Virus record (IMG/VR): IMGVR_UViG_3300046115_000180
Source: a virus
Length of the DNA stretch: 64,000 nt
Reading direction: 5' to 3' (one strand)
Shown here one piece after another: positions 3,619 to 37,667 of the stretch. Under the pieces are notes generated by a model, which was given only the letters and a program-made list of their open reading frames with translations, made no database searches and was not told where the DNA came from. Made by a program: the position numbers and the translations under genes. Each line of letters opens with the position of its first letter. The stretch's first letter is position 1.

Positions 3619-4047
3619 TTAAATCTTAGTAAGATACTCGATTGCGCGGCGTAAGTCAAGAACAGAATCACGAAAAGCCCCAAGTCCGAAATTGCAAGCA
3701 GCGCACAACAGCCCCCGAACTTTACCCGTTACGTGGTCATGATCCACATGTAGGGTTCGTTCACTCGGCTGTTTACAAATATCACAACAGCCGTTCTGAT
3801 TACGAAAACGTTCGTCATATTCTCCCAGTCTCAGCCCGTAAAGCTGCTGTCGCATTTTTTCTCGACGCGTGGTGATATAGTTCGCTTTTCGATTCGCTAA
3901 TATGCGTGGACGATTTTTCTTCCGCCATTTTGCGGCGTATAGATGGTGGCACTCCCGACAGTCAGAGCGATAGCCGTCTCTGGTTTTTACGTGCCGATTG
4001 AATTCGGTTATGGGTTTACTTTGACGACACTTTATGCAAGTTTTCAT
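3619..4047 (-). CDS. recombination endonuclease VII family protein
   Basis: LHVDHDHVTGKVRGLLCAACNFGLG matches the T4 gp49/Endonuclease_7 signature, and an N-terminal CxxC zinc motif is present. The ATG at 4047 overlaps the giant-gene stop (ATGA). Confidence 0.85.
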   Translation of the reverse strand: MKTCIKCRQSKPITEFNRHVKTRDGYRSDCRECHHLYAAKWRKKNRPRILANRKANYITTRREKMRQQLYGLRLGEYDERFRNQNGCCDICKQPSERTLHVDHDHVTGKVRGLLCAACNFGLGAFRDSVLDLRRAIEYLTKI

Positions 4048-21281: not shown

Positions 21282-21692
21282 TCAAAAATTGTGGTTCACG
21301 TAAGCCGAGACCCAACCGATCCCGCCGTTCAGCCCGTCCAGCGCGGCAGTATCCGTATACGATTCCATATCGTCCTCACCCTTGCGACCCGTATATACCT
21401 CGTGATCCTGATACGCAGCAGAAAATCCAAACCCGCCGTTGAGTCCTTGCAACGGGTCGGAATTTGAATAATCGTCCATTTCATCGAGCGCTTGCAACCC
21501 CATGAAAAGATTTCGGTCTACATAAACCGAAGTCCACTCGATAACGAAAATATTGTTGCCGTCTTCGCCGCCATCGAGTCCATTCAGCACTTCTGCGTCA
21601 TTGTAATCTTCAAAATCGTCGTTAGGTATGTTCGCGAACTGCCCCGACGATTGGCGCAGAAACGCAAGATCTAATAGTGAAAGACTTCTCAT
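21282..21692 (-). CDS. acidic repeat protein with three D-x-Y...GLNGG units
   Basis: Three similar units: [54 protein letters not shown]. Confidence 0.5.
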
Positions 21693-22288
21693 GGTTCCGC
21701 CGAATACGCCGCCACGATATCGGTATCAGCAGAACCAAAACACGTAACCGACAGAATCGCGATTTTATTCGCCGCAAGACTGGCCGGCGGGGCGGCTCCC
21801 ACAAACTTCCACGCCGGAAAGGTCAACGTGCGCGTAGAACCATCGCCGATGATGCGGATCGACAGCGCTTTCGGCGCCCCCCGATTTGAGGTCGTGAAAG
21901 TAACATTCCCCGCTAGGGTTAATGAGCGGTAATCATCCGCGTCAAAATTCAGATCCGTAGTGGCCGAATAGGCTAAAACGGAGTGTGGAAAACTCCCCTC
22001 GGGTCCGGTTGGGCCTTGCGGTCCAGCCGCACCGGTGGCGCCCGTCGCACCTGTGGCACCCGTCGCACCTGTGGCGCCCGTAGCACCGTTAGCACCGTTA
22101 GCACCGTCAGCACCGTCAGCACCGTCAGCACCGTCAGCACCATCGGCCCCCGGGATACCCGCTGGTCCGGATAGATTTTCTCTCGGCACTCGGCGCAATC
22201 GCTTCGTCCCTGGCGATATCTCGACATGAGTTAAAACATCCCCTTCGACGGGAGTTTCTGTCCACAACGGAATTTCAGAAATTTTCAT
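21689..22288 (-). CDS. collagen-like tail fibre protein
   Basis: Long Gly-X-Y run [13 protein letters not shown]...GATGATG...[10 protein letters not shown]. The C-terminal ~90 aa are paralogous to the C-terminus of 42205..42732. Confidence 0.8.
21995..22168 (-). repeat. 9-nt tandem repeats encoding the collagen Gly-X-Y run
   Basis: Runs of agcaccgtc / agcaccgtt / ggcacccgt units are visible on the plus strand. Confidence 0.85.
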
Positions 22289-22527
22289 ATCTCGTCAATG
22301 CAAATGAGTTCCCCGTTGTCTTCCGTTAGCGGAACAACATTTCCCGGAACTTCTTCATCTTCCAAAATGATAAAGCATTCGGCGGGAAGAGTCCCAGGCG
22401 GATTTCGAACCGTCAGCACATAGGCCGGAGAACCCACGGTCTTCGTCCCACCAATCGGCGGGCAACACAGGCTCACGCCGTTATCACCCGTCACTTTCGG
22501 AGTAAACGTGCCTCGTTTACAACTCAT
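22285..22527 (-). CDS. hypothetical protein (80 aa)
   Basis: ATGA overlaps at both ends. Confidence 0.5.
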
Positions 22528-23543
22528 TCAATCCTCACAAATGTTAACGTGGTTGCGTTCGCGACGACAGCGATCTTGTCGGAAGTCGTCGCCTTGCCAA
22601 AAAGCGCTACGGTTTGATTTGGGGCGGTAGTTTCCGCAATCGAGTTGAGGATGACTTGCTTTTCCTCACCTACGATGATGTTTGAAATCCCCTTCTCCGA
22701 GCCCGTCACATCGACAGGAGTCCCGGAGGTATTTCGAAGTTTCAAGGTTACCTTATCCGTTGCCGCCACCGTCGCAAGACCGATAACGCCGACCACTGCC
22801 GTAATCAAATAGCTCCCCTCTGCGGGTAACAACACCTCGGGAACAGAGGACGTGAAGTCTACCGCGGCATACGCAACTTGCGTATCATAATTGGTTCCTG
22901 AGGGAACAGAAAATGATCCGTTCGTCGCAGTGAAGGACGCACCAGGACTTCCGGTCGCGCCGGGCGGTCCTTGAATCCCTTGCTCCCCCTGGATACTGGC
23001 ACCCGGGAATCCCGACGGAACGACCAACTTACCCGCGGTAATCACCGCTGGCGCCCCCGCGACGGCTTTCACCATCGTGAGGAAAAGCACCCCGGAAGGG
23101 TCCGCCTCATTGACCAGATACCACCCCGACGTGGCGATGAAAACATAGAGATCGTCGAGGATCGCGGGATTCGCCGACGTGGCAACTTGGACGTTGGGTT
23201 GCTCCAACGACGGCTGCACAAAGCTCGCAAGCGTGACAGTATACGCATTGCGTCCTGCTGCACCGTTGGTGCCGGGATTCCCCTGCGGCCCAGTCAGCCC
23301 CACAATCCCATCTGAAAAGAGCCGCAGGAAATAGCACGCGAGACCCTCACCCTCGGCGCGCGGATTGTTTTCCAACCCCACGTCAAGATCGCACGGAAGC
23401 GACCACGTTACCGCGCCGTCGACTTCTGTCTTGATGACGGCACCAAAAAATTGAGTGGTGAAATTCTGAATTTGAGACGGCAGCGATTCGCACGCCGCGG
23501 TGTTCGTCTCCGAGACCGTGTTACATGGATTGCAACAAGACAT
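22524..23543 (-). CDS. collagen-like fibre protein with two short Gly-X-Y segments
   Basis: GLTGPQGNPGTNGAAG and GEQGIQGPPGATGSPG are each followed by a beta-rich domain. The ATG (MSCCNPC) lies 1 nt after the upstream TAA. Confidence 0.65.
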   Translation of the reverse strand: MSCCNPCNTVSETNTAACESLPSQIQNFTTQFFGAVIKTEVDGAVTWSLPCDLDVGLENNPRAEGEGLACYFLRLFSDGIVGLTGPQGNPGTNGAAGRNAYTVTLASFVQPSLEQPNVQVATSANPAILDDLYVFIATSGWYLVNEADPSGVLFLTMVKAVAGAPAVITAGKLVVPSGFPGASIQGEQGIQGPPGATGSPGASFTATNGSFSVPSGTNYDTQVAYAAVDFTSSVPEVLLPAEGSYLITAVVGVIGLATVAATDKVTLKLRNTSGTPVDVTGSEKGISNIIVGEEKQVILNSIAETTAPNQTVALFGKATTSDKIAVVANATTLTFVRIE

Positions 23544-23544
23544 A

Positions 23545-24069
23545 TTACATCTTCTCCCGCAAAAGTTTTGCCTCAGCCCGAGCCGATCCGTGCCGATGGC
23601 TGAACCAATAGAGCGCCACCGCGCCGATCCCGACACATAAAATTAACAGTTCATTCCCCACTACAACAGTGGGCAAAATCGTAAGACCGAGCCCGGCGAT
23701 CATCGCCACGGCAGAAGTTGTCGCGCTTCCCACAATCGCCTTGAGCGGGGGCCAGACGAGCGAAGCAGCACCGAGGACAAAAAGTCCGATGCCAATAAAC
23801 ATAACCGGTCGCAGGGCAGAAAGCTTCGCAGCCGTTTCCGCCAAGATATTTTTCTGCGCGGCGCCGATCTTCGTAGTCCACGTGATCCTCGTGCCGTCCG
23901 GCCGGAGTTCTACATACTCTCCTGTGCTGGCGTCTTTCGGGTTATCCGGCTGGCCAACCCCGCCAGAAAAGCCTGGAGAGGCAAACCCGGCCCACCCGCC
24001 GCGAGTCGCAGTTTGGCAGGCTGAAAGCAGTAACAACATCGGCAACAGGATCGGCAACAGTTTATTCAT
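23545..24069 (-). CDS. lipoprotein with C-terminal transmembrane segments (u-spanin-like architecture)
   Basis: MNKLLPILLPMLLLLSAC has a lipobox. Several hydrophobic helices occupy the C-terminal half. Confidence 0.45.
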   Translation of the reverse strand: MNKLLPILLPMLLLLSACQTATRGGWAGFASPGFSGGVGQPDNPKDASTGEYVELRPDGTRITWTTKIGAAQKNILAETAAKLSALRPVMFIGIGLFVLGAASLVWPPLKAIVGSATTSAVAMIAGLGLTILPTVVVGNELLILCVGIGAVALYWFSHRHGSARAEAKLLREKM

Positions 24070-24265
24070 CGTCGGAGACTTTGGCCGCTTTCCGCGCCGC
24101 GCGGATCTTGTAGACTATGAGGATAACCGTCGCAACGGCGACGGCAATCTGGCTGAGGGTGAGGACAGATGCCAGATACGGTTCGACGGCGATAACCGCG
24201 GACTTGATTCCCTGGAGTAATACATTCAAACTGACCCATCCCAAAATCGCATTATCACTTTTCAT
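24062..24265 (-). CDS. small two-helix membrane protein (holin-like)
   Basis: 67 aa with two hydrophobic stretches and a charged C-terminus (KIRAARKAAKVSDDE). Confidence 0.4.
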   Translation of the reverse strand: MKSDNAILGWVSLNVLLQGIKSAVIAVEPYLASVLTLSQIAVAVATVILIVYKIRAARKAAKVSDDE

Positions 24266-24335: not shown

Positions 24336-25661
24336 TTAGTTATCGCATTGGTCACCGCAAACCGGGTCCGCGCACTCGACCACGTCGCAGCACACGCCCA
24401 CGTTAGTGAAGCTGTCTGCGCCGGAGAAGGCCAGCGAATCCGTGTCCGCGCAATCAACCAGACCCAAATCGGCCGGGCAGCGCTTATACAGAATTGGAAT
24501 GATGTGCTGCGGGCGCATCGGACAATATGCACGAGTAATCTGATACTTGTGCCAGCCGAAATCACCCCACTGATTGCACTTGTTGTCGATCTGGTAGTGC
24601 CAGTCGAGTTCGCCGGCATGAAGCTGCGGCGCAAACCGGAAGCTGCCTTCGCCAACATAGCGCTCGGGCACCTGACGTTCAAACGAACCCTCGGCAATCA
24701 GGACGCCGACTTCGTATTCGGCAGCCAGCCATGCAGGATTCACTTTCGCGTAAGCCGTATTTCGGCACGCGTTCGAGATGATCGTCACCGGGTCGACAAG
24801 CGCAAGCGTGCCGTCGGCATTGAAGCCAGTAGCGCGCAAAGGCCGCTGATCCACGCCGAACGCAAGGCCGCGATACGCGGGGCTGGACTCGAATGAATAC
24901 GCGGTCAGCGTATTCTCGCCGAGTTTGTAGCCACCTTCCGTAAGGCAACACATGACGTTTTGGACACCGATTTCCGAGCGAAAATACTCGATTTGGTCGG
25001 AGCCGCCGATGAAGCGGAAATGGGGCATTCCTTTGTCGGCCGAATACCACTCACCGAAAAGCACCTCTTTGAGATACCGGGCAATGTAGTGCAGAGCCTT
25101 GAAGGTCATGGGTCCAGTCGGCAACAGCGGCGCAAACTTCACGCCCAGGTCGCACTCGGAGCCGCCTGTAAACAGCGAATTGAAGTCGTAGCCGGCGTTC
25201 GCCGTGAACTTCGAAGCCGACCGCAGATACAACTGCGCACGAATGTCCGCGTTGATATACTGCGTAATCAGCTTCTTGAGAGAATCTTCGGCCATCGTGT
25301 AGCTGCCCTTGAAGGCGGAATAGCCTTTCTTGACGCAGATATTCGGACCGCGACCGCGAAACGATTCGAGTCGACAGTTCAGTTCGATGGTATCGGTCAA
25401 ATCCTGGTGACCCAGGCTGCCGCAGAGTTCGGTATCGCACACAAACTGCGGAATGGCGAGAGAATCGCCGGGCGCAGCCTGCATCTGGACCACGCTCCGG
25501 TGGTTGTCTGAAACACCAGCCGGAAATACACCGCCGCCGATGACGTTAATGTAGGGGGAGTGTGCAGCAAGCGCACGGGCAATACTGCCTACAATACGGT
25601 TACTGTCTTTTGATGCGATGTCAGATATTGTATCTGCATCACACTCGTTAAAATCTGGCAT
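24336..25661 (-). CDS. putative major capsid protein
   Basis: 441 aa, the first large gene after the scaffold in the head module. It has a long A-rich leader upstream and a hairpin downstream. No motif-level proof. Confidence 0.55.
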   Translation of the reverse strand: MPDFNECDADTISDIASKDSNRIVGSIARALAAHSPYINVIGGGVFPAGVSDNHRSVVQMQAAPGDSLAIPQFVCDTELCGSLGHQDLTDTIELNCRLESFRGRGPNICVKKGYSAFKGSYTMAEDSLKKLITQYINADIRAQLYLRSASKFTANAGYDFNSLFTGGSECDLGVKFAPLLPTGPMTFKALHYIARYLKEVLFGEWYSADKGMPHFRFIGGSDQIEYFRSEIGVQNVMCCLTEGGYKLGENTLTAYSFESSPAYRGLAFGVDQRPLRATGFNADGTLALVDPVTIISNACRNTAYAKVNPAWLAAEYEVGVLIAEGSFERQVPERYVGEGSFRFAPQLHAGELDWHYQIDNKCNQWGDFGWHKYQITRAYCPMRPQHIIPILYKRCPADLGLVDCADTDSLAFSGADSFTNVGVCCDVVECADPVCGDQCDN

Positions 25662-25819
25662 ATGGCCTTTTTTTTTCTAAACAGCGCGGTTTTCCGTGCG
25701 CTTACCCGGTTGCAGAAATTTACCCCTGCAAGGTAGTTTGTTCAGACTCGCTGTGGGCCATCCAGCGTTAAGGCCGCTTCCCGGGGTGCCGGCCAGGAGA
25801 ATTAGGCACCGTCAATCAA
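25662..25819 (-). promoter_or_regulatory. 158-nt structured leader / regulatory region upstream of capsid gene
   Basis: Small hairpins are present (GGTGCC..GGCACC, TTGCAG..CTGCAA, AGCGC..GCGCT). A CGCGCTGTTT variant motif and an A9 tract precede the ATG. Confidence 0.35.
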
Positions 25820-26776
25820 TCAGTGCTCGGCCGCGAGATCCGCGTCAACCATCATGCGGACCAATTCAACAAATTTCGTCTTCGGCTCCCAGCCAAGTTG
25901 CCGCTTGGCCTTCGAGGCGTCGCCGATCAGCAAGTCGACTTCCGTCGGACGAAAAAGCCGGGGGTCGTTACGAACGTAGTTTTCCCAGTTAAGCCCCACA
26001 TAGCCAAAGGCTTCGTCAAGAAACTCGCGAACGGTATGAGTCTCGCCGGTAGCGATAACGTAATCATCAGGAGTCTCCTGTTGGAGCATCCGCCACATGG
26101 CGTCGACGAACTCTCCGGCGAATCCCCAATCTCGTTTTGCGTCAATATTCCCAAGAAACAAATGGTTCTGTTTCTTCTTCAAAATGTTCGCGACAGCGCG
26201 CGTGATCTTGCGCGTCACGAAAGTTTCACCACGCCGCGGGGACTCGTGGTTAAACAAAACTCCATTGCTGGCGTGTATGTCATGCGCCTCGCGATAGTTA
26301 GTGGTAAACCAGAAAGAGAACACCTTTGCGCAACCATACGGACTTCGAGGATAAAAAGGCGTCGTTTCGCGTTGCGGAACTTCCTGAACCTTACCGAACA
26401 TTTCTGACGACGCGGCATTATAAAATCTAGGTTTGCACCCCACCGCACGAATTGCTTCGAGCAGCCGAACGGTGCCGAGGGCCCCCACATCAGCGGTGTA
26501 TTCTGGGGCATCGAAAGAAACGCGCACGTGCGACTGCGCGCCCAGGTTGTAAACTTCCGTCGGTTCGATCTTCGACATTAGCCGCGCAAGCGCACTGCCA
26601 TCACTCAGATCGCCGTAATGGATATGCAGCCGGTCGAAAATATGGTCGATGCGCCCGGTGTTGATCGAGCTAGACCGACGGATGATCCCATGGACTTCGT
26701 AGCCCTTTTCCAAAAGGAGTTCTGCGAGATAGCTGCCGTCTTGACCCGACACGCCAGTAATGAGTGCTTTTTTCAT
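25820..26776 (-). CDS. gmd: GDP-mannose 4,6-dehydratase
   Basis: Near full-length resemblance to bacterial Gmd: [79 protein letters not shown]. Confidence 0.95.
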
Positions 26777-27678
26777 TGTTTTATCAAACTGTCCCAACAC
26801 GCGCGATACGTCCTCTCCAAACCAGTCCGAATCGGCGTCATGGGTTCCCAATTCATCAACTCACGAATGAGTGTATTGTCGCTACACTTGTGTTGACGGC
26901 CAGTCGACGCCGCCGAATTGTAAAACCGAGTCAGCTTCACGGCAGCGATATCTTCAAGCAATCCCACCAATTCGTTAATCGAGACACACCGAGCGTTCGC
27001 CATGTTAACCGGACCCGTCACGCCATCAAAAACCATTTTCGAGGTGCCGTGCAGACAATCGTCGATGTAGAGAAAACTTCTCGTCTGATTACCATCTCCC
27101 CAGATCGTGATTTCGTGACGCCCGCTCAATTTAGCTTCCGCGACTTTTCGACACAGCGCAGCGATTACATGATCTCGCTCTTGTTCCCGAATATCTCCCG
27201 GGCCATACAGCCCGTGATATCGTGCGATGCTGACTGACAGCCGATATTGCTCTTGAAACGCAAGACAGGCCCGCTCGCTGAAAATTTTCTCCCAGCCATA
27301 ACCGGCAATTGGGTCGGCCGGATACGCATCTGACTCTTTGAGGTATTCGATCCCGTCTGGATACACGCACGAAGACGACGAGAAAAAATACCGAGCGGTA
27401 TCCTGCGACGCCGCCGCTTCCAACAGGTTGAGATTGATCCGCGCCGACATCATGCACGACGCCTTGTTACGGCTAATGAAATCGATGCCGCCGACCTTCG
27501 CCGCCAAATTAAAAACCCATCGCGCGCCGGCAATGGCGGCGCGACACTGCGCCGGGTCTTGAAGATCGTGCGTCTGGCGAGTCACGGCTCGAACCTCATG
27601 CCCGCGTTCCGCCAAATGCTGAACCAATCGCCGGCCAACGAAGCCCCCGGCGCCACAAACTACAATGAGATCAGACAT
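26773..27678 (-). CDS. NAD-dependent sugar epimerase/reductase (GDP-L-fucose synthase-like)
   Basis: Rossmann motif [13 protein letters not shown], a YGWEK (YxxxK) motif, and LYGPGD...HVIAALCRK resembling Fcl. ATGA-coupled to gmd. Confidence 0.7.
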
Positions 27679-28399
27679 AGTGCCTTAAATAATATTCTCG
27701 ATCCTCAACCAGTCGGTTGAGCACTCGTTTGGATTTAACTGTGTGAACGAAAACTGTGCCGGCGTAGCGGACCTTGCCACTCATGACGCCGAAGTGGAAC
27801 TCGTCGTTTTCGCTAGGAAAACTAACAGATCCGTTTCGAAAATCCTTGTGCGGAACCCCCGCGAGCCGCGCGCACTGGAGCAACCAGTGATCAATCACCG
27901 GCGTAATCGGGTCCGGCGTCGGCACCGTCGACCAACAAAGAAGTTTCTTGATGACGGCGCGAGAGAAGAACCAGGGCGGGTGCAGCGCAATCCGCGGCAA
28001 CTCGTAGCCCGCGGGACGTTCGTGCATCAAGTCCGAGATCTCATTCGACCAGAGCGTCTCCGAGTCTTTATAGAGATACGCCGGCAACAACGGGTCTAGG
28101 CAAAGTGAGTCCGCGTCGCACGCGAAGAAAAACTGCTCTGGAAATTCCAGCATCATCCGCATATGGATCTCCTGGCGCCGGATTGCATCTTCGCCGATGT
28201 AGCATCGCTTTCCGCCGGTGCGGAAAGTCACGTCGGCGATGGTGCCGTCGTTATCCCAGGGCTTGATCGGTGCGTCTTCCGGCGAGAAAACGGTCACCGG
28301 GCAGCGATGGTGCAGATAGTATGGCAGCAACGCCTGGATTTGGTGCGCGTCACCAGCGTATCCAAAAATAACTACTCGGGTGCTCGGGTTACCTTTCAT
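27671..28399 (-). CDS. glycosyltransferase-like protein (paralogue A)
   Basis: Clear paralogue of the next gene (YAGDAHQ, WSNE(I/V)SD(L/M)MH, FVHT/SVK). Lies in the sugar cluster. The family was not recognised. Confidence 0.5.
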   Translation of the reverse strand: MKGNPSTRVVIFGYAGDAHQIQALLPYYLHHRCPVTVFSPEDAPIKPWDNDGTIADVTFRTGGKRCYIGEDAIRRQEIHMRMMLEFPEQFFFACDADSLCLDPLLPAYLYKDSETLWSNEISDLMHERPAGYELPRIALHPPWFFSRAVIKKLLCWSTVPTPDPITPVIDHWLLQCARLAGVPHKDFRNGSVSFPSENDEFHFGVMSGKVRYAGTVFVHTVKSKRVLNRLVEDREYYLRHYV

Positions 28400-29295
28400 C
28401 GTCGTCGGCTGGAAACGCTTACTATCTTCTGCCCCGGATTCAACCGTCGTTTCTGTTTGATATACGACGAGTGGTCGTGCACGAGCCAGTTGAGGACGCG
28501 CTTTTCTTTTATAGAGTGCACAAAAACTTTACCTTGCGTGCTGACGACTCGCCGCATTACGGCTAGCCCTTCTGGGGAATTTGTTGTTGGGTAGCTAGCG
28601 CCGTCGCGAAAGTTATTATGGGGGCAGCCGGATGCTACTGCCCACGCGCAGAGGCACCAATCGATAAAAGGTGTTTGCCCATCAAAAATATTTTTTCTAT
28701 CAGCCGCGCTTAACAGCCGCTTTATAACCCGCCGAGACATTACATACGGGGGTTGAAACGCCAGTCGGGGCCACGGATAGCCGGCCGCACGATGGTGCAT
28801 CATATCAGAGACTTCATTCGACCAGAGAACTTCTGGCTCGGCGAAAACGTAGTCCGGAATTTTCGGAGATAGGCACACGCTGTCGGAATCATTCATGAGA
28901 AACCACTCGAATGGATAGTCCAACAGCGCGTGCATCTGAAGCCGCTGCCGCTCCAAAGAATCCCAGCCTATGTATGCCCTCTTGCCTTCGAAACGACAAA
29001 TGTGCGGCCCCATTTTTTCAATCCGTGAATCGTTCGGCGAAAAAATTACAACAGAACAATTGTGATGCTCGTATAGCGGCAGGGCGTTTCGAACCTGGTG
29101 GGCATCGCCGGCATACCCGTGAACCGAAACTAAAGTTGAATTGTTCACAACAAATTCTTTCTGCTCAATTCCAAAAGTGAAAAATCCTTTACCCCATGAA
29201 TCCACGACACTCTCGCAGCCGTAAACTGGTCCCAACTTTCTTGAGTAAAAGTCGGACACCGCCACAAACTTTTTACGAAAGGAAAATCGGCCCAA
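28396..29295 (-). CDS. glycosyltransferase-like protein (paralogue B; start uncertain)
   Basis: Paralogue of 27671..28399. The ORF-track start overlaps the upstream gene by ~150 nt, so the true start is probably internal. Confidence 0.45.
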   Translation of the reverse strand: MGRFSFRKKFVAVSDFYSRKLGPVYGCESVVDSWGKGFFTFGIEQKEFVVNNSTLVSVHGYAGDAHQVRNALPLYEHHNCSVVIFSPNDSRIEKMGPHICRFEGKRAYIGWDSLERQRLQMHALLDYPFEWFLMNDSDSVCLSPKIPDYVFAEPEVLWSNEVSDMMHHRAAGYPWPRLAFQPPYVMSRRVIKRLLSAADRKNIFDGQTPFIDWCLCAWAVASGCPHNNFRDGASYPTTNSPEGLAVMRRVVSTQGKVFVHSIKEKRVLNWLVHDHSSYIKQKRRLNPGQKIVSVSSRRR

Positions 29296-29867
29296 CCCCG
29301 CTTTTTAAACTCCGGTGCGAGTGCCCAGTCCCATCCCACCGTGCCGTCACTTACGTTTACCGCTAGATATTTCAAAAACGAAAGACTCCCCGACAGCATA
29401 CAGCAATCGCCATTGATGTGGTCTCGTGCGGGATTTGGAATCAGCGCGCCAGCCGCACAAATTTCAGTTACTTTATTCGCGGCGTCCCACGCCATGTGCA
29501 TCTGCGCCAGCCAGTCTCGACGCAACGGCACGCTGTCGGCCCCCAGGATGAGGACCGCTTTATACTGCGGAATTTTTCCTCCCGCCATCTTGTGATAAAT
29601 CCATTCCATCGCCCCAAAGAAAATCGACGTGCAGCCGAGGGGCCAACCCACACCGCGGCGCGTGCTCGTGTAGGAGTAGATGTTGAACTTGCGAGCGGCG
29701 TATTTCTCTGTCTCGACATCGTGCTTGCAATCGAACCGCGAGACGAAAAGGATATCGGCCGATATGGAGTGGTCCGGTTCCAAATCCGCGAGCAGCCGCG
29801 CCAACTTCATGGCTTGTGCCCGGTCGTTTTTCCAAAACAGAATCGTGATGAGTATTTTGTTGCTCAT
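29145..29867 (-). CDS. glycosyltransferase-like protein
   Basis: The MSNKILITILFW start is ATGA-coupled. Lies in the sugar cluster. No firm motif. Confidence 0.4.
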   Translation of the reverse strand: MSNKILITILFWKNDRAQAMKLARLLADLEPDHSISADILFVSRFDCKHDVETEKYAARKFNIYSYTSTRRGVGWPLGCTSIFFGAMEWIYHKMAGGKIPQYKAVLILGADSVPLRRDWLAQMHMAWDAANKVTEICAAGALIPNPARDHINGDCCMLSGSLSFLKYLAVNVSDGTVGWDWALAPEFKKRGWADFPFVKSLWRCPTFTQESWDQFTAARVSWIHGVKDFSLLELSRKNLL

Positions 29868-30736
29868 TCCATCTTTCTTGGACCGTAAACGTGGTGCCCA
29901 ATGTGCCCGCAGAGCAAGCCGAGATCGACATGGGGCTGGTGCCCCGACTCTGCCGCTCGTATACAAAACTGGCTGTCCTCACCCATCCCAAGGCTGGACT
30001 TCCGCTTCGCGTCCCGAAGGGCGCCGTCCAGCATTTCATACGCCTTGAGTGCTTTCTCGCCCGTCATCGGACCCGCGGACAAAAATTTATGCGTCCGGTG
30101 CACGTGGTCGAGTAGGTTGTGCTCCGAGGTAGAAAACCAGTGTCCGCCCATTCCATCCGGACCGCGGCCCAGGTGCGGAAACCGCTTTTCCATGTCCTCA
30201 AACACACTCCGATGAATCATCATACAGCCGGTGCCAACCCAGCGCGTCGGCTTGCACACATCTTGCGGGCCGGTTCGCACATACTCTGCCTCTGCCTTTC
30301 CCTCGTTGTAAACGGGATACCCGTTTTTCCATCGGCCAAAATACAGCGCGCCCACTAACGTTTTGCCGTGCGAAAGCAGCCGGTCGATGGCGTTGAACTT
30401 CGAAAATGGTTCCGGAACCTCGTATCCCATATGCCCGTTGAACCACGCCGAGTTCCCGAATGGAATCAGCATGTCGTCGTCGATAGTCAGCATCCATTCC
30501 AGGTCCGACTTCAGAAAAAGATCCGCGCAAGTGTTACGAGAGTGCGCCACGAACGCGTCGCCGAAATTCAGCATCGACGATGTCCGCCGCTTGTCTGCGA
30601 GTTGCGAAACGCAGAATGACGTAATCGGGTGCACGTGCTTGAGCCATGGGTACACCAGCATCACCCTCTTTTTGAAGATGGCGACAGAAGAAAGGGGCGT
30701 CACGGCGCCCCCCACGATTCCAACTTCCGGTTCCAT
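29864..30736 (-). CDS. GT-A fold (family 2-like) glycosyltransferase
   Basis: TIDDDMLIP (DxD motif) and GTGCMMIHRSVFE are typical of GT2-type enzymes. Confidence 0.6.
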   Translation of the reverse strand: MEPEVGIVGGAVTPLSSVAIFKKRVMLVYPWLKHVHPITSFCVSQLADKRRTSSMLNFGDAFVAHSRNTCADLFLKSDLEWMLTIDDDMLIPFGNSAWFNGHMGYEVPEPFSKFNAIDRLLSHGKTLVGALYFGRWKNGYPVYNEGKAEAEYVRTGPQDVCKPTRWVGTGCMMIHRSVFEDMEKRFPHLGRGPDGMGGHWFSTSEHNLLDHVHRTHKFLSAGPMTGEKALKAYEMLDGALRDAKRKSSLGMGEDSQFCIRAAESGHQPHVDLGLLCGHIGHHVYGPRKME

Positions 30737-32088
30737 TAGACTCCAGCCGCGGCTTTCTGCCGAGTTTCGATTACCTGCTTTCGGAGACTGTCCAATGAGT
30801 CTCCGGCGGAGATATTAAAGTTGTCCTTGGTCTTTACTGGCTCGGGGCGATTCGTCGGAGCGCCCGACTCCCTCGACCGGCTCGGAGACTTAAGACGCTC
30901 GATCAGTTTGTTCGCGTCGTCCAATTTTTTCTGGAGCGACTCCATCCCGACTTTCTGCGCCGCATTGACTTTCTGAAGATTAAAAAGTTGGGCCATACCG
31001 ACGAGCATTATCGCGCGCATCTGCGGACTATCATCCGCCAGGGCTTCGTCGAGTTGCTTGCGCGTCGTGGCGACAAACTCGTTATGTTCCTTGACCGACT
31101 TGACTGTGGCGTCGTCCGCACCGGCGGGCGCCGTCTTCTCTGTCAGCCACTCGACTTTGGGCAACAACTGATTCAGTTCCGTTTTCGTTGCGGTAGTATG
31201 CGACACGGCAGACTGTTTAAACGACTGCTCTCGTTCCGAGAGATACTGGCCGATATTCTCCTTGACGGACTTGATCGCCTGCTCCTTGTTGAATTTTTGC
31301 TGCTCGATGTCGGCGATTTTCGTCTCCACCAACCGCTGGATCGTCGGATCTTTGATCACCTCGAAAATCTTGGTCATGTTGACGTTTTCCGGTCCGCCGT
31401 ATTTCTTGATCTGGGCGATTGTCTCGTCTGTGACCGCGGGGGATTTCTTCAGTTGAGAGTAGATGAAATCTTGGGCCGAGGTGACCGCCTTGTCGTATTC
31501 CTTGAACTTCGGGTCCAGGTCCACGTCCAGCCGGGCGCGAAACTGACGAAGGTCTTCCAATTCTTTGGTCACTTCCGCCGGCACCGGGTTCTTCAGTTTC
31601 TCGGAGAACTCAGAATTCGCTTTCGTAAGGTCCGCAAGTTGTTGCTCCAGTTTGGAAATTTCCTGGGCCGCTCGGGTTTTTACTGACAAAAATGCTTCGG
31701 AAGACTTGGGGCTAGCACCCGCGGGAAGCCCTGGCGAGTCCTTGAAAAGTTCGGCGGCGCGTTTTTCCGCGGCATCGTCCTTCGGCGGAGTAACGGGCGG
31801 AGTGGCTGCAGGTTTCACCGGCGGTTCATCGCCAGCCTTCGGTTCGTCACCCGGTTTGGGATCACCATCCGGTTTTGGCTCATCGCCCGGTTTGGGTTCC
31901 ACCTCCAGCGCTGCCTCGGCATCGGCAGCCTTCTTCTCGTTGGCGGCTTTCAACAAATCGTCAAGTGCGACGGACGTATCGGGAGAAGCAGCCGGTGCCA
32001 AAGACTGCCCTGCGGCGTCTTGCGCCGCTACCTTGGCTGCGATTTCTGCGTTGTGCTCTGCGTTGTTTGTTTTCGGTTGGTCAGGCAT
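30736..32088 (-). CDS. scaffolding-like protein
   Basis: 450 aa, K/E/A/P-rich and coiled-coil-like. It sits one small gene downstream of the portal gene. Confidence 0.5.
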   Translation of the reverse strand: MPDQPKTNNAEHNAEIAAKVAAQDAAGQSLAPAASPDTSVALDDLLKAANEKKAADAEAALEVEPKPGDEPKPDGDPKPGDEPKAGDEPPVKPAATPPVTPPKDDAAEKRAAELFKDSPGLPAGASPKSSEAFLSVKTRAAQEISKLEQQLADLTKANSEFSEKLKNPVPAEVTKELEDLRQFRARLDVDLDPKFKEYDKAVTSAQDFIYSQLKKSPAVTDETIAQIKKYGGPENVNMTKIFEVIKDPTIQRLVETKIADIEQQKFNKEQAIKSVKENIGQYLSEREQSFKQSAVSHTTATKTELNQLLPKVEWLTEKTAPAGADDATVKSVKEHNEFVATTRKQLDEALADDSPQMRAIMLVGMAQLFNLQKVNAAQKVGMESLQKKLDDANKLIERLKSPSRSRESGAPTNRPEPVKTKDNFNISAGDSLDSLRKQVIETRQKAAAGV

Positions 32089-32423: not shown

Positions 32424-34457
32424 TTATTCGGGTGGGGGTTGAGATTGTAACTCGGCGGCTTGTTGGTCTAACTGCTTTAGCTCCGCGAGCACCTTGCCGG
32501 TATTCTTGACGAGGTCCGCGACTTGCTGAAGTTGTTCTTTCGGAGCGCCCTGCTCCAAACTTCGATTGTAATGCTCGGTTATGTGGGCTAGAATTGCCTC
32601 CAGCGCTACGGTCTCGGCGCCGCCTTGCATAATCGCGGCCGCGGTTTGTTCCGCAACCGGCATTATGACGCTCAAGTGGACTTGATGATTATCGCGCGGA
32701 CTCACGGGCACTGGTTGGCCGGACGATAGAAGAACCAATTCTAACTGCTGCAACCGCTGCTGCTCCGATTCCACCGTGGGGTCATTATCCGGAATCAACA
32801 CACGCTCGGCGAAATTTGCGCCCACGCGCGCACTCAAATCTTCGATCTCCATCTGCCGCTGATTGTATAGCGGATTTCCACGCTTCTCTGCAACCACCGC
32901 GGCGACCATTTGGCGCTCCAGGGGAGTGAGATCCCGAACCGTGCCGGCGACCGGCTGCTCGGAAAGTTCTTTTAACTCGGCGGCCGTCAAAAATTCTTTG
33001 AGTTTCTTGCGCGCGGCCTTCGCATCTTCATCATCGGTATCGGAATCGCAAATTCTTCGCTGCATAGTTCCAACCATATCGACGAACTGCTCCAAAAATC
33101 GACCGATTTTTGCATCCTTACTTTCCTCCTCCCTTTGCGCAACCAAGTTCCAGGCCGTCGACGAACGAAACGCCTCGCCTTCGAGCTTCGGGGGCGACAC
33201 ATTGCCGACCAATTGGTCGACCAGCATAGAAAAGTAAGCATCCAACTTGAGAAACGGCTCGATGTTACCGTCAATTTTCTGCTCCAGCACCGTCCAACCA
33301 TTCGGCACAATAGCCGTGGCGCCGACAATCGACATTTTAAAAGTGTGTATCCTCTTTATGTCGCCCTGGATAAGAGTTTTCCCGGATAAAATCGAGCGGT
33401 CGACGATTTCATTACGGGTTCGGTCCAGCATGCCGGCCAATTCGTAGATATCTCGCCCCACGCCCTTGCTTCCGTGCATTTTCCCATTTCCCTTCTGATA
33501 AGAAAAGAACGCGAGGCACGCTTCCATCGACTCAAACCGATCCTCCTTGGAAAAAATCTCATCGCGGCCCTCTCCGGCCAGCCGATAGTGACTCACCTTG
33601 CCGTCAACCTCGCGCGCGAGCAGAGAATACACCGTAATGACGCTGGCACCGGCCATATAAGACGACCCGAGCGTCAGATCACGAATGGCGTTCTGATACC
33701 ACGTCTCCGCGTTCGTCGCACTGCCAAGTTGCTCTCTGAGTTGTGCCGGCGACGCCTTATTAATTGCATCGATAGTCTTCTGGATTTTCCATCCGACCAT
33801 TTCCGCGGCTTCTCTATCTTTGATCTGAGCAAACAACTCGTGCGGAAGATATACTTCTTTCAACGCGATGATCTGGCCAGAGTATACCGATTGAGACGCG
33901 CCGTCCGGAAGAAAACTTTCATCCTGATGGAACGCTTTTGGAAACCAAGAGAGTTCGTCGAGCCACGCCACAACCGAGTGGCCGAAAAGGGCGTTGTCGA
34001 AGGCGATGTCTTCGACCAGCGGGCGCCAGCCCTTGCGCGCGCGAATCGTCTCGGTGATGATCTTGCGAAATTTCTCCGTCTTCTGGGTCGAGTTCTCCCA
34101 CTTGTCCGAGAGCGAGGAATTCGTCAGATACTTAAGGCTGTTGACGGCTTCGACAAACCTCGGCGCGACCTTCTCGATCATCAGCGGCAGCGGCTTCGTG
34201 GTAAAATTCTGGCGCCACCCGAGTCCCTCGGCCTCCAGTTTACAAGAATCGTAAGGCCGCTCCGCGTTATACTTCGCCAGGATACGCCCGTTGACGATCT
34301 GCCGGTTTCGGTTCGACGATATCAGGGTCTCGACGATATCCTTCGCCATCCCGGCGTCCTTGACACTGTGCCGCGTCGGTTCGCCGGCCGAATTGATCTT
34401 CGGGCTTTGGATCAGCCCGTCGTTGGAAACTTCAGAATCAGACATCGGCATAGACAT
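32424..34457 (-). CDS. portal protein
   Basis: 677 aa, downstream of large terminase and upstream of scaffold. Size and position are typical. GCACTGTTTAAATG precedes the start. Confidence 0.65.
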   Translation of the reverse strand: MSMPMSDSEVSNDGLIQSPKINSAGEPTRHSVKDAGMAKDIVETLISSNRNRQIVNGRILAKYNAERPYDSCKLEAEGLGWRQNFTTKPLPLMIEKVAPRFVEAVNSLKYLTNSSLSDKWENSTQKTEKFRKIITETIRARKGWRPLVEDIAFDNALFGHSVVAWLDELSWFPKAFHQDESFLPDGASQSVYSGQIIALKEVYLPHELFAQIKDREAAEMVGWKIQKTIDAINKASPAQLREQLGSATNAETWYQNAIRDLTLGSSYMAGASVITVYSLLAREVDGKVSHYRLAGEGRDEIFSKEDRFESMEACLAFFSYQKGNGKMHGSKGVGRDIYELAGMLDRTRNEIVDRSILSGKTLIQGDIKRIHTFKMSIVGATAIVPNGWTVLEQKIDGNIEPFLKLDAYFSMLVDQLVGNVSPPKLEGEAFRSSTAWNLVAQREEESKDAKIGRFLEQFVDMVGTMQRRICDSDTDDEDAKAARKKLKEFLTAAELKELSEQPVAGTVRDLTPLERQMVAAVVAEKRGNPLYNQRQMEIEDLSARVGANFAERVLIPDNDPTVESEQQRLQQLELVLLSSGQPVPVSPRDNHQVHLSVIMPVAEQTAAAIMQGGAETVALEAILAHITEHYNRSLEQGAPKEQLQQVADLVKNTGKVLAELKQLDQQAAELQSQPPPE

Positions 34458-35274: not shown

Positions 35275-37191
35275 TTATGATATTCGATCATTCAAAACGT
35301 CTGCCCGGTTGGATTCATCGATCCGAACGCCATTCGGATACGACCAACTGTCGTCGTCATCCTCCGAGTTGGTATCACGTGAATCGGAGTCCGATGGTTT
35401 CATCGACGGGACGAAGCCGGAGCCTTTACGAACGGCATGCACAATCAGCGTAAGAGAGTCCGCCTCATTCGGCGACGATTGGCCCGTCCGCGCCATAAAC
35501 TCCCGTTTCGCCTCCACCTTCGTTTGCTTACCTGATTGCTTCGATTGTCGCTGCGTAAGTTGCGGCGCTAGCAACGTGAGATCCATTGCGGGGTGCAGCA
35601 ACAAATATCCAAACTCTGCGAAACTTCTGAACGCAAACCAAAGTTCCGCGCACATTCGATCATATGATTCTTTGCAGGTTTGCGTGTCTTCCTGCATCAA
35701 TTTTTCTTCCGACGGACCCTGCGAATAATTTACTCCGTGCACAGAACTCGACCACTCATGCTTGACTAAATCCACGGTGCCGCGGGTGTGCCCCGTCTGA
35801 TCCAGGCAAAGAAACTGAGGGCGAATACCAAAACGTTTGGCCAGCGTGATGACGGAATCTTTCATCGCCACCGTTTCGCCTTTCGGCAGGGTAACCTGTT
35901 GCTCAACCTGGAGCCCCCACCTCGGCGTCACGCGATGAAAACGATCCTTAAACATGACGGTGTGCCCATTCGGATGGTCGATAGACGGCGGATACTTCAC
36001 GCCAGTTGCCCGTCCCCACTTACCGAGTGTGAACGGCGCCGCGTCGCCACCGTCCAACGCGAGATCACACGAACCTACCGCCACGGGAGTGTCATACCAG
36101 ATGTATTCTCCCCGGATCTTCGGAATCATGCCCGGAGGAATTATCGAAAGTGAAATGCCGGTCGGTGGATACGCACCGCGCCCCATTGAATAATACCCCG
36201 CTGTCTCGCGCCCGCCCGCGTTGCGCGCGATCCTTTCTAACCCCGCCACATGCTGCAAACCCTGGAAAATAACGCGTTTATGGATTACGTTCTCGGAGCG
36301 CTCGCCGTCCAGCCGCAGCACGTCCCAATCGCGTTTCGACTTCCATCGATAGTGCGAATTGATGTCGAAATTCTCCCAACCCGTCACCGGTTCCGCGCGC
36401 TTGCTGACTTCATCATTCTGATTGGTAGGGTTATACGCCCCGAAAATTTTGAACCCGCCGACCTTCCCCCCTTCTTCCACGAGAGAAAGCACGTTGTCGA
36501 TGTCGTTCCAAAGTCCCCCCGGAACATTTTCAATTTCGTCGATGAAAATGAACACGCGCCCAAGCGAACCAAAAATGGGATGCGGATTGATGCGCGGATT
36601 ACGCTTTCCGCCCTGCAACCGGCCCGCCTTTTTCGTGTTGCCCTTTGGAATCACGAGCCCCGCTATCGAAGAAATCTGATTGCGCCGGTCGAGTCCTATG
36701 AAAAGATCGCCCACTTCTCCGGGCATCGGCAACGTCGCGGTTTTGTGCAATCGAACCAGATGCGAAAAAAGATTGCGCTCCAGGTGATCCTCGCTCGGGC
36801 CGATCACTTGCACTGTAGTCCATTCTGGATCTCGAATCCATTCCAGGAAAAGCCGCACACCGATGCCGTAGCTCTTACTGCACGAAGCGGCCCCCATAAT
36901 AAGGCCGGTATTCGCAGTCTCAAACAGGTTCCACAGATCTTTCGTGAACTGCGGCTCGGAAGTAAATTGATTTTTCGTCCAGAGCATCGCGGCCGCTTCC
37001 TCCGGCGCGCCGGAGTTAAGAAGGTGATGCAGGTAATGCTGGAGCAACTCCATGGCGGTGTTCTCCTTCTCGATCCGGATACTCAGCCGGCAATAGTCAG
37101 AAACCTCGCGCGCCGCCGATATCAAATCGTGGGAATGCACGAGCGACGCTACCGTGGACGCCAGTTTACGTTCTGCCGAGTCTACTAGCAT
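35275..37191 (-). CDS. terL: terminase large subunit
   Basis: Walker A-like GAASCSKSYG and Walker B VFIFIDEIE. Nuclease-domain segment SCDLALDGGDAAPF and a C-terminal NEADSL. Confidence 0.85.
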   Translation of the reverse strand: MLVDSAERKLASTVASLVHSHDLISAAREVSDYCRLSIRIEKENTAMELLQHYLHHLLNSGAPEEAAAMLWTKNQFTSEPQFTKDLWNLFETANTGLIMGAASCSKSYGIGVRLFLEWIRDPEWTTVQVIGPSEDHLERNLFSHLVRLHKTATLPMPGEVGDLFIGLDRRNQISSIAGLVIPKGNTKKAGRLQGGKRNPRINPHPIFGSLGRVFIFIDEIENVPGGLWNDIDNVLSLVEEGGKVGGFKIFGAYNPTNQNDEVSKRAEPVTGWENFDINSHYRWKSKRDWDVLRLDGERSENVIHKRVIFQGLQHVAGLERIARNAGGRETAGYYSMGRGAYPPTGISLSIIPPGMIPKIRGEYIWYDTPVAVGSCDLALDGGDAAPFTLGKWGRATGVKYPPSIDHPNGHTVMFKDRFHRVTPRWGLQVEQQVTLPKGETVAMKDSVITLAKRFGIRPQFLCLDQTGHTRGTVDLVKHEWSSSVHGVNYSQGPSEEKLMQEDTQTCKESYDRMCAELWFAFRSFAEFGYLLLHPAMDLTLLAPQLTQRQSKQSGKQTKVEAKREFMARTGQSSPNEADSLTLIVHAVRKGSGFVPSMKPSDSDSRDTNSEDDDDSWSYPNGVRIDESNRADVLNDRIS

Positions 37192-37635: not shown

Positions 37636-37667
37636 GAAACAAAAATGCCCACCTTTTGGGTGGGCAT
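37636..37667 (-). terminator. intrinsic terminator closing the recombinase cassette
   Basis: Perfect 9-bp stem ATGCCCACC/GGTGGGCAT with a 5-nt loop, followed on the minus strand by TTTTTGTTT. Confidence 0.75.

Follow-up and report, generated by a model that had tools for sequence, protein, structure and literature searches.

A conserved two-gene core and a hypervariable glycan-tailoring island next to the putative capsid gene in a lineage of uncultured phages

The six minus-strand genes at positions 25820..30736 of the 64 kb viral sequence analysed here (the window) consist of a conserved two-gene core and a hypervariable glycan-tailoring island. In all 69 related loci that we compared, the scaffold-like gene is followed by P6 and then P5, while the genes for an extended SDR, Gmd and the P3/P4 family come and go. 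On balance, we regard the block as one local form of a glycan island that sits beside the capsid-like gene throughout a large lineage of uncultured tailed phages. Since two genes are fixed across this large lineage and the rest are variable, a virion protein of its phages probably bears a coat of sugars that differs from strain to strain.

The six overlapping genes are all co-oriented and, in the list of open reading frames, are flanked by scaffold-like and capsid-like genes. The junctions, read from the sequence on the minus strand, are TAATG between the scaffold-like gene and P6 (the stop of the former overlapping the start of the latter), ATGA between P6 and P5, GTGA between P5 and P4 (P4 start over P5 stop), ATGA between P4 and P3, ATGTCTGA between P3 and the SDR gene, and ATGA between the SDR gene and Gmd, whose ATG overlaps the SDR stop. 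The starts of P5, P4 and Gmd were refined from longest-ORF coordinates. All six ORFs of the coupled run proposed by the first-pass annotation are thus present on the minus strand with overlapping junctions; because the scaffold-like gene and P6 overlap as well, the translationally coupled genes number seven. The scan revealed no evident terminator within this run from the scaffold-like gene to Gmd. A spacer of 158 nt (25662..25819, minus strand) separates Gmd from the capsid-like gene; it contains no convincing terminator according to the scan and no significant RNA structure (fold z-score -0.91). The GC content of the cassette (0.525-0.552) is the same as in the remainder of the window. Membrane segments are predicted in none of the six proteins, and the block encodes no flippase, polymerase, acyltransferase or chain-length regulator.

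None of the proteins P3, P4, P5 and P6 has a sequence match in Pfam, NCBIfam or PDB, and recognising them as glycosyltransferases therefore required structure prediction. The anchor of the block is P6 (29864..30736, minus strand; 290 aa), assigned from its predicted structure and synteny. In Foldseek searches, its AF2 model (pLDDT 87.1) matches STIV A197 (8.9e-7), LH3/ColGalT1 (~2e-6) and ppGalNAc-T2 (5e-5) in PDB, and viral GT-A enzymes in BFVD, the best at 5e-16. The invariant residues among 825 homologues include R67, D86-D87-D88 and E253-D254. The model thus identifies P6 as a glycosyltransferase of the GT-A fold with an invariant DxD motif, in agreement with the GT2-like enzyme with a DDD motif that had been noticed in the sequence.

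The second core gene, P5 (29145..29867, minus strand; 240 aa), has 105 homologues, all unannotated, with invariant D15, D28, D111, H150, N152 and D180. Comparison with the P3/P4 family using hhalign gives an E-value of 0.0023 over 214 columns, and its score of 27.6 exceeds those of all 200 shuffles (peak 23.9). This suggests that P5 is probably a distant GT-A relative; its earlier description as glycosyltransferase-like is backed by a weak link to the GT-A fold.

P3 (27671..28399, minus strand; 242 aa) and P4 (28396..29148, minus strand; 250 aa, with a GTG start) are tandem paralogues with 45% identity (E = 6e-69). The AF2 model of P3 (pLDDT 93.4, pTM 0.91) matches CHSY3/CHPF (5.4e-9), B3GNT2 (~1e-8, TM ~0.6) and AfGfsA in the Foldseek search of PDB, and the P3 family has an invariant D95-x-D97. 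What had been described as a tandem pair from an unrecognised family is indeed a pair from a family without annotation, and by the modelled fold of P3 both members are accessory GT-A enzymes of the GT31-like type. The pair occurs in 15 of the 69 related loci, with at least one copy in 42. The best fold matches of the P6 and P3 models include protein-glycosylating enzymes.

Gmd (25820..26776, minus strand; 318 aa) scores 506.9 bits against the NCBIfam model TIGR01472, above the cutoff of 415, and 2.2e-137 against Pfam PF16363. By sequence it is a true GDP-mannose 4,6-dehydratase, as the first reading had held to be very clear. Its neighbour, the extended SDR of the GDP-hexose 3,5-epimerase type (26773..27678, minus strand; 301 aa), had been called Fcl-like. 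Its phmmer matches in PDB are, however, stronger to GDP-mannose 3,5-epimerase (GME; 8sg0, 5.7e-48, 166.8 bits; 2c59, 3.3e-47) than to GDP-L-fucose synthase (95 bits; 7ll6, 3.6e-26; 1bsv, 2.7e-20), and the NCBIfam Fcl model gives 131 bits against a cutoff of 500. The Fcl assignment is therefore not supported: judged by sequence similarity, the SDR is closer to GME than to fucose synthase. The SSSC and YxxxK motifs are both present, and a His takes the position of GME Lys217. Gmd is found in 22 of the 69 loci, always accompanied by the SDR, and the SDR in 45, 23 of them without Gmd. Given this distribution and the GME-like character of the SDR, the GDP-fucose product previously expected from the two enzymes is not secure.

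The variability of the block is reflected in the distance between the scaffold and capsid genes, which lies between 1.8 and 5.9 kb (sd 1182) in the 69 loci, compared with an sd of ~112-136 at neighbouring junctions. The accessory genes of relatives encode a Sulfotransfer_3 protein (100 bits), a PS_pyruv_trans protein above cutoff and a CapD-like enzyme (244 bits), as well as GT34-like proteins and FkbM and SAM methyltransferases. A sister clade with ~49% identity in the putative major capsid protein (MCP) has the identical layout. As the compared loci are not phylogenetically independent, the counts of loci here and below overstate the support. The block had been suspected to be an insertion; since P6 and P5 are fixed as a lineage core and the variable, accessory part is confined to the remaining four genes, it is not a single or one-off insertion.

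The position of the block between scaffold-like and capsid-like genes, also proposed at first reading, is preserved as the order terminase, portal, scaffold, block, capsid-like gene in ~150 related loci. The scaffold-like gene (30736..32088, minus strand) encodes a 450-aa protein with abundant Ala, Lys, Glu and Pro and is labelled by position and composition; the family searches returned no match, and its homologues lie immediately ahead of P6 in 69 of 69 loci and in the sister clade. The putative MCP (24336..25661, minus strand; 441 aa, 18 Cys) is strongly conserved, with 68-96% identity across the clade, and has no Pfam, PHROG, PDB or GenBank-phage match even when a 65-sequence profile is used. 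The order of portal, scaffold and MCP-like genes persists in relatives with ~40% MCP identity. The portal-sized gene (32424..34457, minus strand; 677 aa), whose place upstream of the scaffold gene is conserved in both clades and also in L088/L089, has no family or PDB match, and the large-terminase-like ATPase (35275..37191, minus strand; 638 aa; Walker A GAASCSKS, Walker B IFIDE) has none in Pfam, PHROG or PDB. The terminase-like homologue in locus L007 carries a 348-aa Hom_end/LAGLIDADG intein precisely within the P-loop. The capsid, portal and scaffold labels thus rest on synteny rather than on recognised folds: the gene order of the head module is conserved as initially claimed, while its capsid, portal and terminase lack family support at the sequence level.

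Somewhat better than even, in our estimate, is the prospect that the block serves to glycosylate a virion protein in the cytoplasm, most likely on the Ser/Thr-rich C-terminal tail of the MCP-like protein. Transcription of the island would take place late in infection, together with that of the head genes. Soluble, cytoplasmic P6 and its partner P5 would start a glycan on the virion protein, the likeliest acceptor being the tail of the capsid protein encoded immediately downstream. Changeable accessory enzymes would extend and decorate this glycan, here P3, P4 and the two enzymes that would convert host GDP-mannose into rarer donors. The product of the GME-like 3,5-epimerase may be GDP-L-galactose or GDP-L-gulose; alternatively, this enzyme may be of the GMER type. 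Gmd would yield GDP-4-keto-6-deoxymannose, the precursor of 6-deoxyhexoses. In relatives, sulfo-, pyruvyl- and methyl-transferases or further sugar enzymes may be exchanged in, and through such swapping each phage would acquire a different surface glycan. Which protein accepts the glycan, when the genes are expressed, which sugars are made and that the 441-aa protein is a capsid protein are points that we infer, whereas the analysis shows the layout of the genes, the identity of Gmd, the GT-A folds of P6 and P3/P4, the GME-like character of the SDR and the pattern of core plus variable genes.

The proposed acceptor tail (24339..24476, minus strand) lies past a conserved 'KRC...C' motif and in most relatives abounds in Ser/Thr; in the window the enrichment is modest (5 of 46 residues). 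P6 occurs together with a tail of at least three Ser/Thr in 122 of 139 loci, and locus L088, where the scaffold gene directly adjoins the capsid gene, has neither P6 nor a Ser/Thr tail. Nine exceptional loci have P6 and a tail free of Ser/Thr; one subclade of 7-9 loci shows this combination, and therefore the tail cannot be the sole acceptor.

Sugar hypermodification of DNA, in which the transferases would glycosylate hydroxymethylated phage bases to block host nucleases and the sugar-nucleotide enzymes would supply unusual donors, is an unlikely function, and one that the first-pass annotation did not raise. The invariant R67, D86-88 and E253-D254 of P6 do resemble the R...DDD...EDY/F active-site pattern shared by the 5hmC-glycosylating GT-A enzymes of phages, and such pathways can involve sequential transferases or an epimerase paired with a transferase, usually clustered with base-modifying enzymes (bioRxiv 10.1101/2023.12.21.572611). 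The motif is common to P6 and the GT-A enzymes of C5-MT/5mYOX- or ThyS-associated pathways, which comprise both GT-A and GT-B enzymes. One window ORF matches a dNMP-kinase PHROG, and a Mom-family DNA-modification gene lies inside the island of locus L068. However, Pfam searches of the ~74 window proteins found no thymidylate-synthase-like hydroxymethylase, TET/JBP dioxygenase or C5 DNA methyltransferase; the scan for base-hydroxymethylating enzymes was negative over the 64 kb and an extra 2.1 kb, with ~6.5 kb of the genome outside it. The block adjoins scaffold- and capsid-like genes in ~150 loci rather than base-modifying enzymes, and the nearest folds of P3 are glycan-extending GT31 enzymes. 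The accessory enzymes are typical of polysaccharide tailoring, and we know of no role for the sulfo- and pyruvyl-transferases among them in DNA modification.

Slightly less probable still is glycosylation of another structural protein of the virion, either a decoration protein or the collagen-like fibres, which have GxT repeats. At 2-4 kb downstream there are collagen-like genes with (GAT)n repeats, and genes of this kind occur in 60 of 60 window-clade loci; the fold matches of P6 include, besides the collagen glycosyltransferases LH3/ColGalT1, a Megavirus PLOD-like enzyme, and the P6-bearing phages with no Ser/Thr in the capsid tail would also fit. On the other hand, an acceptor is not predictable from GT-A fold likeness, a lysyl hydroxylase was not detected among the window proteins, in 23 of 52 P6-bearing sister-clade loci the 8 kb downstream showed no collagen-like gene, and L088 has a collagen-like gene and no P6.

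Phage-encoded sugar enzymes often target host polysaccharides, as in seroconversion, and the sulfo- and pyruvyl-transferases and CapD-like enzyme of the relatives are typical of polysaccharide loci. Remodelling of the host LPS, capsule or S-layer during infection or lysogeny, which would block superinfection or the sticking of virions to the host, is equally improbable: although the window encodes a resolvase/invertase-type recombinase, making lysogeny possible, the block lacks the flippase, polymerase, acyltransferase or membrane-spanning proteins that Gtr-type systems need, it occupies a fixed site in a late head operon, coupled to the scaffold gene with no adjoining integrase or early region, and its P6-P5 core runs through the whole lineage, unlike the usually sporadic host-modifying morons. 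Bacterial O-antigen and capsule loci are similar in that transferases, nucleotide-sugar enzymes and tailoring enzymes come and go as modules at a fixed chromosomal site, producing many glycan types; they differ from the window block in having a flippase, polymerase, chain-length regulator and membrane protein, and in lying outside a virus head operon.

The proposed glycosylation of a virion protein by virus-encoded enzymes has analogues in two known systems, both resembling the block without sequence homology. According to papers citing Freeman et al. 2023, the mycobacteriophages Che8, Corndog and Myrna attach sugars to capsid and tail-tube proteins by means of their own transferases (PMC12363180, PMC11256854), and Corndog gp38 is a transferase essential for capsid glycosylation (PMC12363180). 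These transferases are soluble and phage-encoded, as are the predicted transferases of this lineage. Corndog genes 33-38, which include that for gp38, are part of the head module, with gene 32 on one side and the genes for maturation protease and capsid on the other, a placement like that of the window block; a head-embedded glycosyltransferase cassette, first thought unusual, is thus not without precedent. Corndog gp33-41 showed no sequence homology to any window protein or family profile. The Corndog record contains no nucleotide-sugar product name, but nearly all of its genes are annotated as hypothetical protein. The window lineage differs in its fixed two-gene core and its hypervariable set with enzymes for sulfation, pyruvylation and methylation.

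The second analogue, PBCV-1, encodes GMD (A118R), GMER (A295L) and the transferases A064R and A111/114R for its capsid glycans (PMC9614988). As proposed for the window block, it makes GDP-6-deoxyhexose donors from host GDP-mannose and uses cytoplasmic virus-encoded transferases, and Gmd is found in both. In contrast, PBCV-1, a giant virus of eukaryotes, has a double-jelly-roll capsid and dispersed glycosylation genes in place of a capsid-adjacent island; the second SDR of the window is GME-like and falls below the Fcl/GMER model cutoff, and the window transferases are small and single-domain. The P6 model weakly matches the PBCV-1 protein Q98454 (E = 9.6e-6, Foldseek, BFVD).

The region 25820..30736 comprises six open reading frames, all on the minus strand and in the transcription order P6 (29864..30736), P5 (29145..29867), P4 (28396..29148), P3 (27671..28399), an SDR (26773..27678) and Gmd (25820..26776). 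Read from the sequence, stop and start codons overlap at every junction from the scaffold-like gene (30736..32088) through Gmd: TAATG between the scaffold-like gene and P6, ATGA at P6/P5, P4/P3 and SDR/Gmd, GTGA at P5/P4, and ATGTCTGA at P3/SDR. The coordinates of P5, P4 (GTG start) and Gmd incorporate starts refined on the basis of these overlaps. The co-oriented, coupled six-gene run described in the first-pass annotation is therefore real, and the interpretation attached to it is supported in part. A terminator scan inside the gene run found no convincing candidate. Gmd is followed by a 158-nt spacer and then by a 441-aa open reading frame (24336..25661). The spacer was considered as a regulatory RNA and rejected, as its RNA fold is not significant (z = -0.91).

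Upstream in transcription order, the block is preceded by genes for proteins of 638, 187, 677 and 102 aa and then for the 450-aa scaffold-like protein, which is rich in Ala, Lys and Glu. These five proteins and the 441-aa protein have no match in Pfam, PHROGs, NCBIfam, the PDB or 50,697 GenBank phages, profiles included. The GenBank phages were searched with megablast and tblastn, and the PDB with phmmer for the terminase (TerL) and portal candidates; a 65-sequence capsid profile was run against the PDB, Pfam and PHROGs, and a 13-sequence portal profile against the PDB. Walker A and B motifs are present in the 638-aa protein, and its homologue in a related metagenomic locus (L007:2352-5309) is interrupted by a 348-aa Hom_end/LAGLIDADG intein precisely within the Walker A loop, between GAASxSK and S. 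Together, the motifs and the P-loop intein support a terminase-type ATPase. The most conserved gene of the module (68-96% identity) encodes the 441-aa protein, which belongs to a family of proteins of about 400 aa (161 clusters at 50% identity); the order portal, scaffold, 441-aa gene is retained in relatives with identity as low as about 40%. On the basis of synteny, size and its high degree of conservation, we infer that it is the putative major capsid protein, and the neighbourhood very probably represents a head module. The capsid-like protein contains 18 cysteines, and a family-wide C-terminal KRC-x7-9-C could form a disulfide or bind metal. Directly after its gene lie 23545..24069 and 24062..24265, one encoding a lipoprotein-like product (LSAC lipobox, C-terminal membrane segments) and the other a membrane protein of 67 aa; a role of the pair in lysis or exclusion within the structural region is possible. 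A strong bidirectional hairpin terminator of 10 pairs is located at 37645..37667, at the start of the open reading frame upstream of the terminase-like gene.

We obtained 80 loci around capsid homologues and classed their open reading frames by family HMMs; 69 loci hold both the scaffold and the capsid gene. P6 is the first gene after the scaffold gene in 69/69 loci and P5 is present in all 69, counts that describe a pattern and not a statistic, since the loci share ancestry and are not independent samples. The remainder is variable: the SDR is present in 45 of the 69 loci, in 23 of them without Gmd; Gmd is found in 22/69 and never without the SDR; at least one copy of the P3/P4 family occurs in 42/69 and two copies in 15/69; and 12 of the 69 contain P6 and P5 only. 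The scaffold-to-capsid interval varies in length between 1.8 and 5.9 kb (sd 1182), compared with an sd of 112 for portal to scaffold and 136 for terminase to portal. This gene-order comparison runs counter to the earlier proposal that the cassette is an insertion between the scaffold and capsid genes, given the universal P6 and P5 and the variable remainder. A recent foreign origin of the block was also rejected, on this universality and on its GC content (0.525-0.552), which is similar to that of the rest of the window. The complete six-gene version is confined to near-identical phages, and we therefore describe the block as a fixed two-gene core with a hypervariable glycan-tailoring island.

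In relatives, the interval also holds a Sulfotransfer_3 protein (100 bits), a polysaccharide pyruvyl transferase (40 bits, cutoff 25), a CapD-like Polysacc_synt_2 enzyme (244 bits), further DxD proteins and occasional homing endonucleases. The SDR is nearly always accompanied by an extra transferase-like gene, which fits the SDR supplying that transferase's donor. Interval genes of three related loci (L068:7877-8524, L009:5544-6152 and L024:2516-3169) are a Mom-family DNA-modification gene (118 bits, in L068) and two putative endonucleases, which, judged by eye from sequence alone, resemble GIY-YIG/NUMOD and HNH-type homing endonucleases; the site is therefore a general insertion hotspot. The sister P0264 clade (about 49% capsid identity, genomes of 61-63 kb, 80 loci obtained) follows the same plan of scaffold, P6, a small DxD protein named x195, a variable set and the capsid gene. 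Its variable set includes SAM and FkbM methyltransferases, GT34-like, GT9-like and FGE-sulfatase-fold proteins; a form frequent in this island is the 327-aa product of L146:6942-7925, whose N-terminus resembles a signal peptide and which contains an FGE-sulfatase (C-type-lectin-like) domain. We tried x195 as a P5 homologue and rejected it (hhalign E = 0.41).

Gmd matches TIGR01472 with 506.9 bits over residues 27-340 of the long open reading frame (equivalog cutoff 415) and PF16363 at 2.2e-137. This full-length match above the curated cutoff identifies it as a true GDP-mannose 4,6-dehydratase, as the first-pass annotation had recognized. The SDR had been described there as Fcl-like, but it is closer to GME. 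The protein scores 131.1 bits against the Fcl/GMER model NF047922, below its equivalog threshold of 500, and its matches to solved GME structures in the PDB (8sg0, 5.7e-48, 167 bits; 2c59, 3.3e-47; query residues 5-292 aligned) are well above those to fucose synthases (75-95 bits). Fcl/GMER enzymes use an acid-base Cys/His pair and a Ser-Tyr-Lys triad (C109, H179, S107, Y136 and K140 in E. coli). The SDR retains the SSSC cysteine and the YxxxK motif (YGWEK). The catalytic Cys145 of GME is conserved and, in the GME alignment only, the Lys217 position, fixed via the K217A mutant entry 2c5e, aligns to the His in ERDHVIAAL. On the stronger GME match and the low Fcl score, we therefore call it, as a prediction from sequence, an enzyme of the GDP-hexose 3,5-epimerase type that is GME-like overall.

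P3, P4, P5 and P6 have no Pfam or NCBIfam match at E <= 0.1, no match in the PDB by sequence or profile, and no significant match to the PF00535 (GT2) or PF01762 (GT31) HMMs. Their lone PHROG match is that of P6 to phrog_1574 (1.6e-8), a family without an assigned function, and their homologues are all unannotated metagenome proteins (34 for P3, 105 for P5 and 825 for P6). The AlphaFold2 model of P6 (pLDDT 87.1) recovered 43 PDB matches with Foldseek at E <= 1e-3, nearly all GT-A, including STIV A197 (8.9e-7), collagen LH3/ColGalT1 (about 2e-6), ppGalNAc-T2 (5e-5) and Mimivirus R699 (1.6e-4). Against BFVD it matched many viral GT-A proteins, with E down to 5e-16, and D86-D87-D88 are invariant across 51 sequences. 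The P3 model (pLDDT 93.4) recovered 282 PDB matches at E <= 1e-3, with GT31-type folds such as chondroitin synthase (5.4e-9), B3GNT2 (about 1e-8, TM about 0.6) and GfsA; D95 and D97 of the P3/P4 family are invariant across 36 sequences. These models identify P6 and P3 as predicted GT-A fold glycosyltransferases with a conserved DxD, and P4, 45% identical to P3, is predicted to share the fold; the resemblance of P3, P4 and P6 to glycosyltransferase families in these models is at the fold level only. P5 aligns weakly with the P3/P4 profile (hhalign E = 0.0023-0.0053, probability 7-12%, 138-214 columns). Its alignment score of 27.6 exceeds all 200 shuffles (maximum 23.9), and Pfam scans of 54 members of its family found no glycosyltransferase family. 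P5 is probably a distant GT-A relative. Thus, of the four glycosyltransferase-like proteins originally proposed, P6 and P3 are upheld by their models, with HMM searches negative for all four, and P4 by identity; P5 reaches a weak profile match only. Membrane segments were absent from all six block proteins, with no 19-residue window reaching a Kyte-Doolittle value of 1.6.

The best-supported reading, and on balance a probable one, is that cytoplasmic enzymes of the block glycosylate a virion protein, most likely on the capsid tail. The block would be co-expressed with the head genes late in infection. Soluble P6 and P5 would initiate a glycan on a virion protein, the capsid tail being the likeliest site, and P3 and P4 would extend it; Gmd and the GME-like SDR would convert host GDP-mannose into rarer GDP-sugars for the accessory transferases. 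The capsid gene product would offer a concrete, testable candidate acceptor for P6 and P5. The capsid proteins of the clade all end in a conserved KRCxADLGLxxC followed by a tail that is usually Ser/Thr-rich, for example DTSSSSFSGADSFTTIGVC, and the wider capsid family has in common a KRC..C and a mostly Ser/Thr-rich tail. We compared 139 loci that extend 3 kb or more upstream. In 122 of them P6 occurs together with a tail of at least three Ser/Thr, five have a tail with one or two, and nine have P6 and no Ser/Thr in the tail; the nine include the truncated L007 capsid, and seven of them are one subclade ending in PCV. In locus L088 the tail is free of Ser/Thr, the scaffold gene leads directly to the capsid gene and P6 is absent. 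In locus L089 the capsid lacks both the KRC...C and a Ser/Thr tail, and a P6-like domain (E = 8e-13) is found only as the C-terminal part of a larger protein that is encoded after the capsid gene (L089:11568-12772). When the comparison was widened to distant capsids, single queries gave 0-1 loci, the distant alignment was too divergent and the P0264 clade alone was productive. The capsid tail is a reasonable candidate acceptor, though not an exclusive one.

More tentatively, the scaffold-to-capsid interval may represent, throughout a widespread and uncultured lineage of phages, a capsid "glycan serotype" locus, in which fixed initiators P6 and P5 combine with an exchanged accessory set to give each phage a specific, complex coat. 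The accessory set would comprise transferases, nucleotide-sugar enzymes and sulfo-, pyruvyl- and methyl-transferases, and the locus would evolve by cassette swapping, like bacterial O-antigen loci. If so, a diversity-generating glycan locus of this type would be described here for the first time in virus particles of environmental bacteria.

The block enzymes are unlikely to serve sugar hypermodification of DNA. P6 shares the R...DDD...ED pattern of phage DNA-glycosylating GT-A enzymes, and such pathways can include sequential transferases and epimerases. However, base-hydroxymethylating enzymes are co-encoded in DNA hypermodification, usually adjacently (bioRxiv 10.1101/2023.12.21.572611), and the 64 kb scanned contain no hydroxymethylase, TET/JBP or C5 methyltransferase: Pfam found no C5-MT with 5mYOX/TET and no ThyS-like enzyme among about 74 window proteins, with about 6.5 kb of the genome of about 72.6 kb outside the scan. 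Remodelling of the host surface glycan is improbable, as the block lacks the membrane component of Gtr-type/O-antigen seroconversion systems and the idea does not fit a universal position in a late operon. We give similarly little credence to glycosylation of fibres or a decoration protein instead of the capsid: collagen-like genes do not track P6, being unseen in the 8 kb downstream in 23 of the 52 loci from the sister clade and present in L088, which has no P6, and this weakens the collagen fibres as a universal acceptor.

Glycosylation of virion proteins by phage enzymes has precedents. In the mycobacteriophages Che8, Corndog and Myrna, capsid and tail-tube proteins are glycosylated by transferases that the phages themselves encode (PMC12363180, PMC11256854). 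Corndog genes 33-38 lie inside its head module, so that the placement of glycan-type genes seen in the window is not unprecedented, contrary to the earlier view of it as unusual. The Corndog proteins differ in sharing no sequence similarity with those of the window: gp33-41, including gp38, gave nothing significant against all window proteins and families with phmmer, hmmsearch and hhalign. For its capsid glycans, PBCV-1 has its own GMD, GMER and transferases (PMC9614988), but it belongs to the giant viruses of eukaryotes and its genes are dispersed. We found no description in the literature of such a capsid-adjacent glycan island. New here are the lineage scale, the fixed anchor pair, the GME-like epimerase, the three unannotated transferase families and the O-antigen-like modular variability at one capsid-adjacent site. 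To our knowledge, only a handful of mycobacteriophages have been shown to carry glycosylated virions, and there the modification protects the particles against antibodies. If virion glycosylation by the block is true, glycan-coated capsids would be common in environmental phages, the lineage being seen in more than 150 metagenome contigs and P6 having 825 homologues. Such a coat would stem from a modular locus that changes fast and sits at a fixed site, so that it is readily located and compared between genomes, and the viral sugar-enzyme repertoire would gain the three transferase families and the epimerase.

The contigs of this phage, whose genome is about 72.6 kb, are in IMG/VR; the one host link, a binned "Rhodoferax" MAG contig of 8.6 kb, is too weak for assignment. 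Elsewhere the window encodes collagen-like tail-fibre-type proteins, an Mtd_N protein, a helicase, an exonuclease, homing endonucleases and a resolvase. The collagen-like genes are at 21689..22288 and 22524..23636, the first with long (GAD)n/(GAT)n runs that give rise to open reading frames in several frames; in Bacillus BclA, GxT repeats carry O-linked glycans. The protein encoded at 42745..44232 has an Mtd_N (major tropism determinant) N-terminal domain, and the Pfam census of the window contained no reverse transcriptase. One window open reading frame matches the dNMP-kinase PHROG phrog_139 (1.8e-11); dNMP kinases accompany modified nucleotides in some phages. A giant open reading frame of 2174 aa (4044..10568) has DUF7178 and two function-unknown PHROGs as its sole matches. 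A tRNA-Gly(GCC) is predicted at 53089..53177 and, at 89 nt, is unusually long for a tRNA-Gly.
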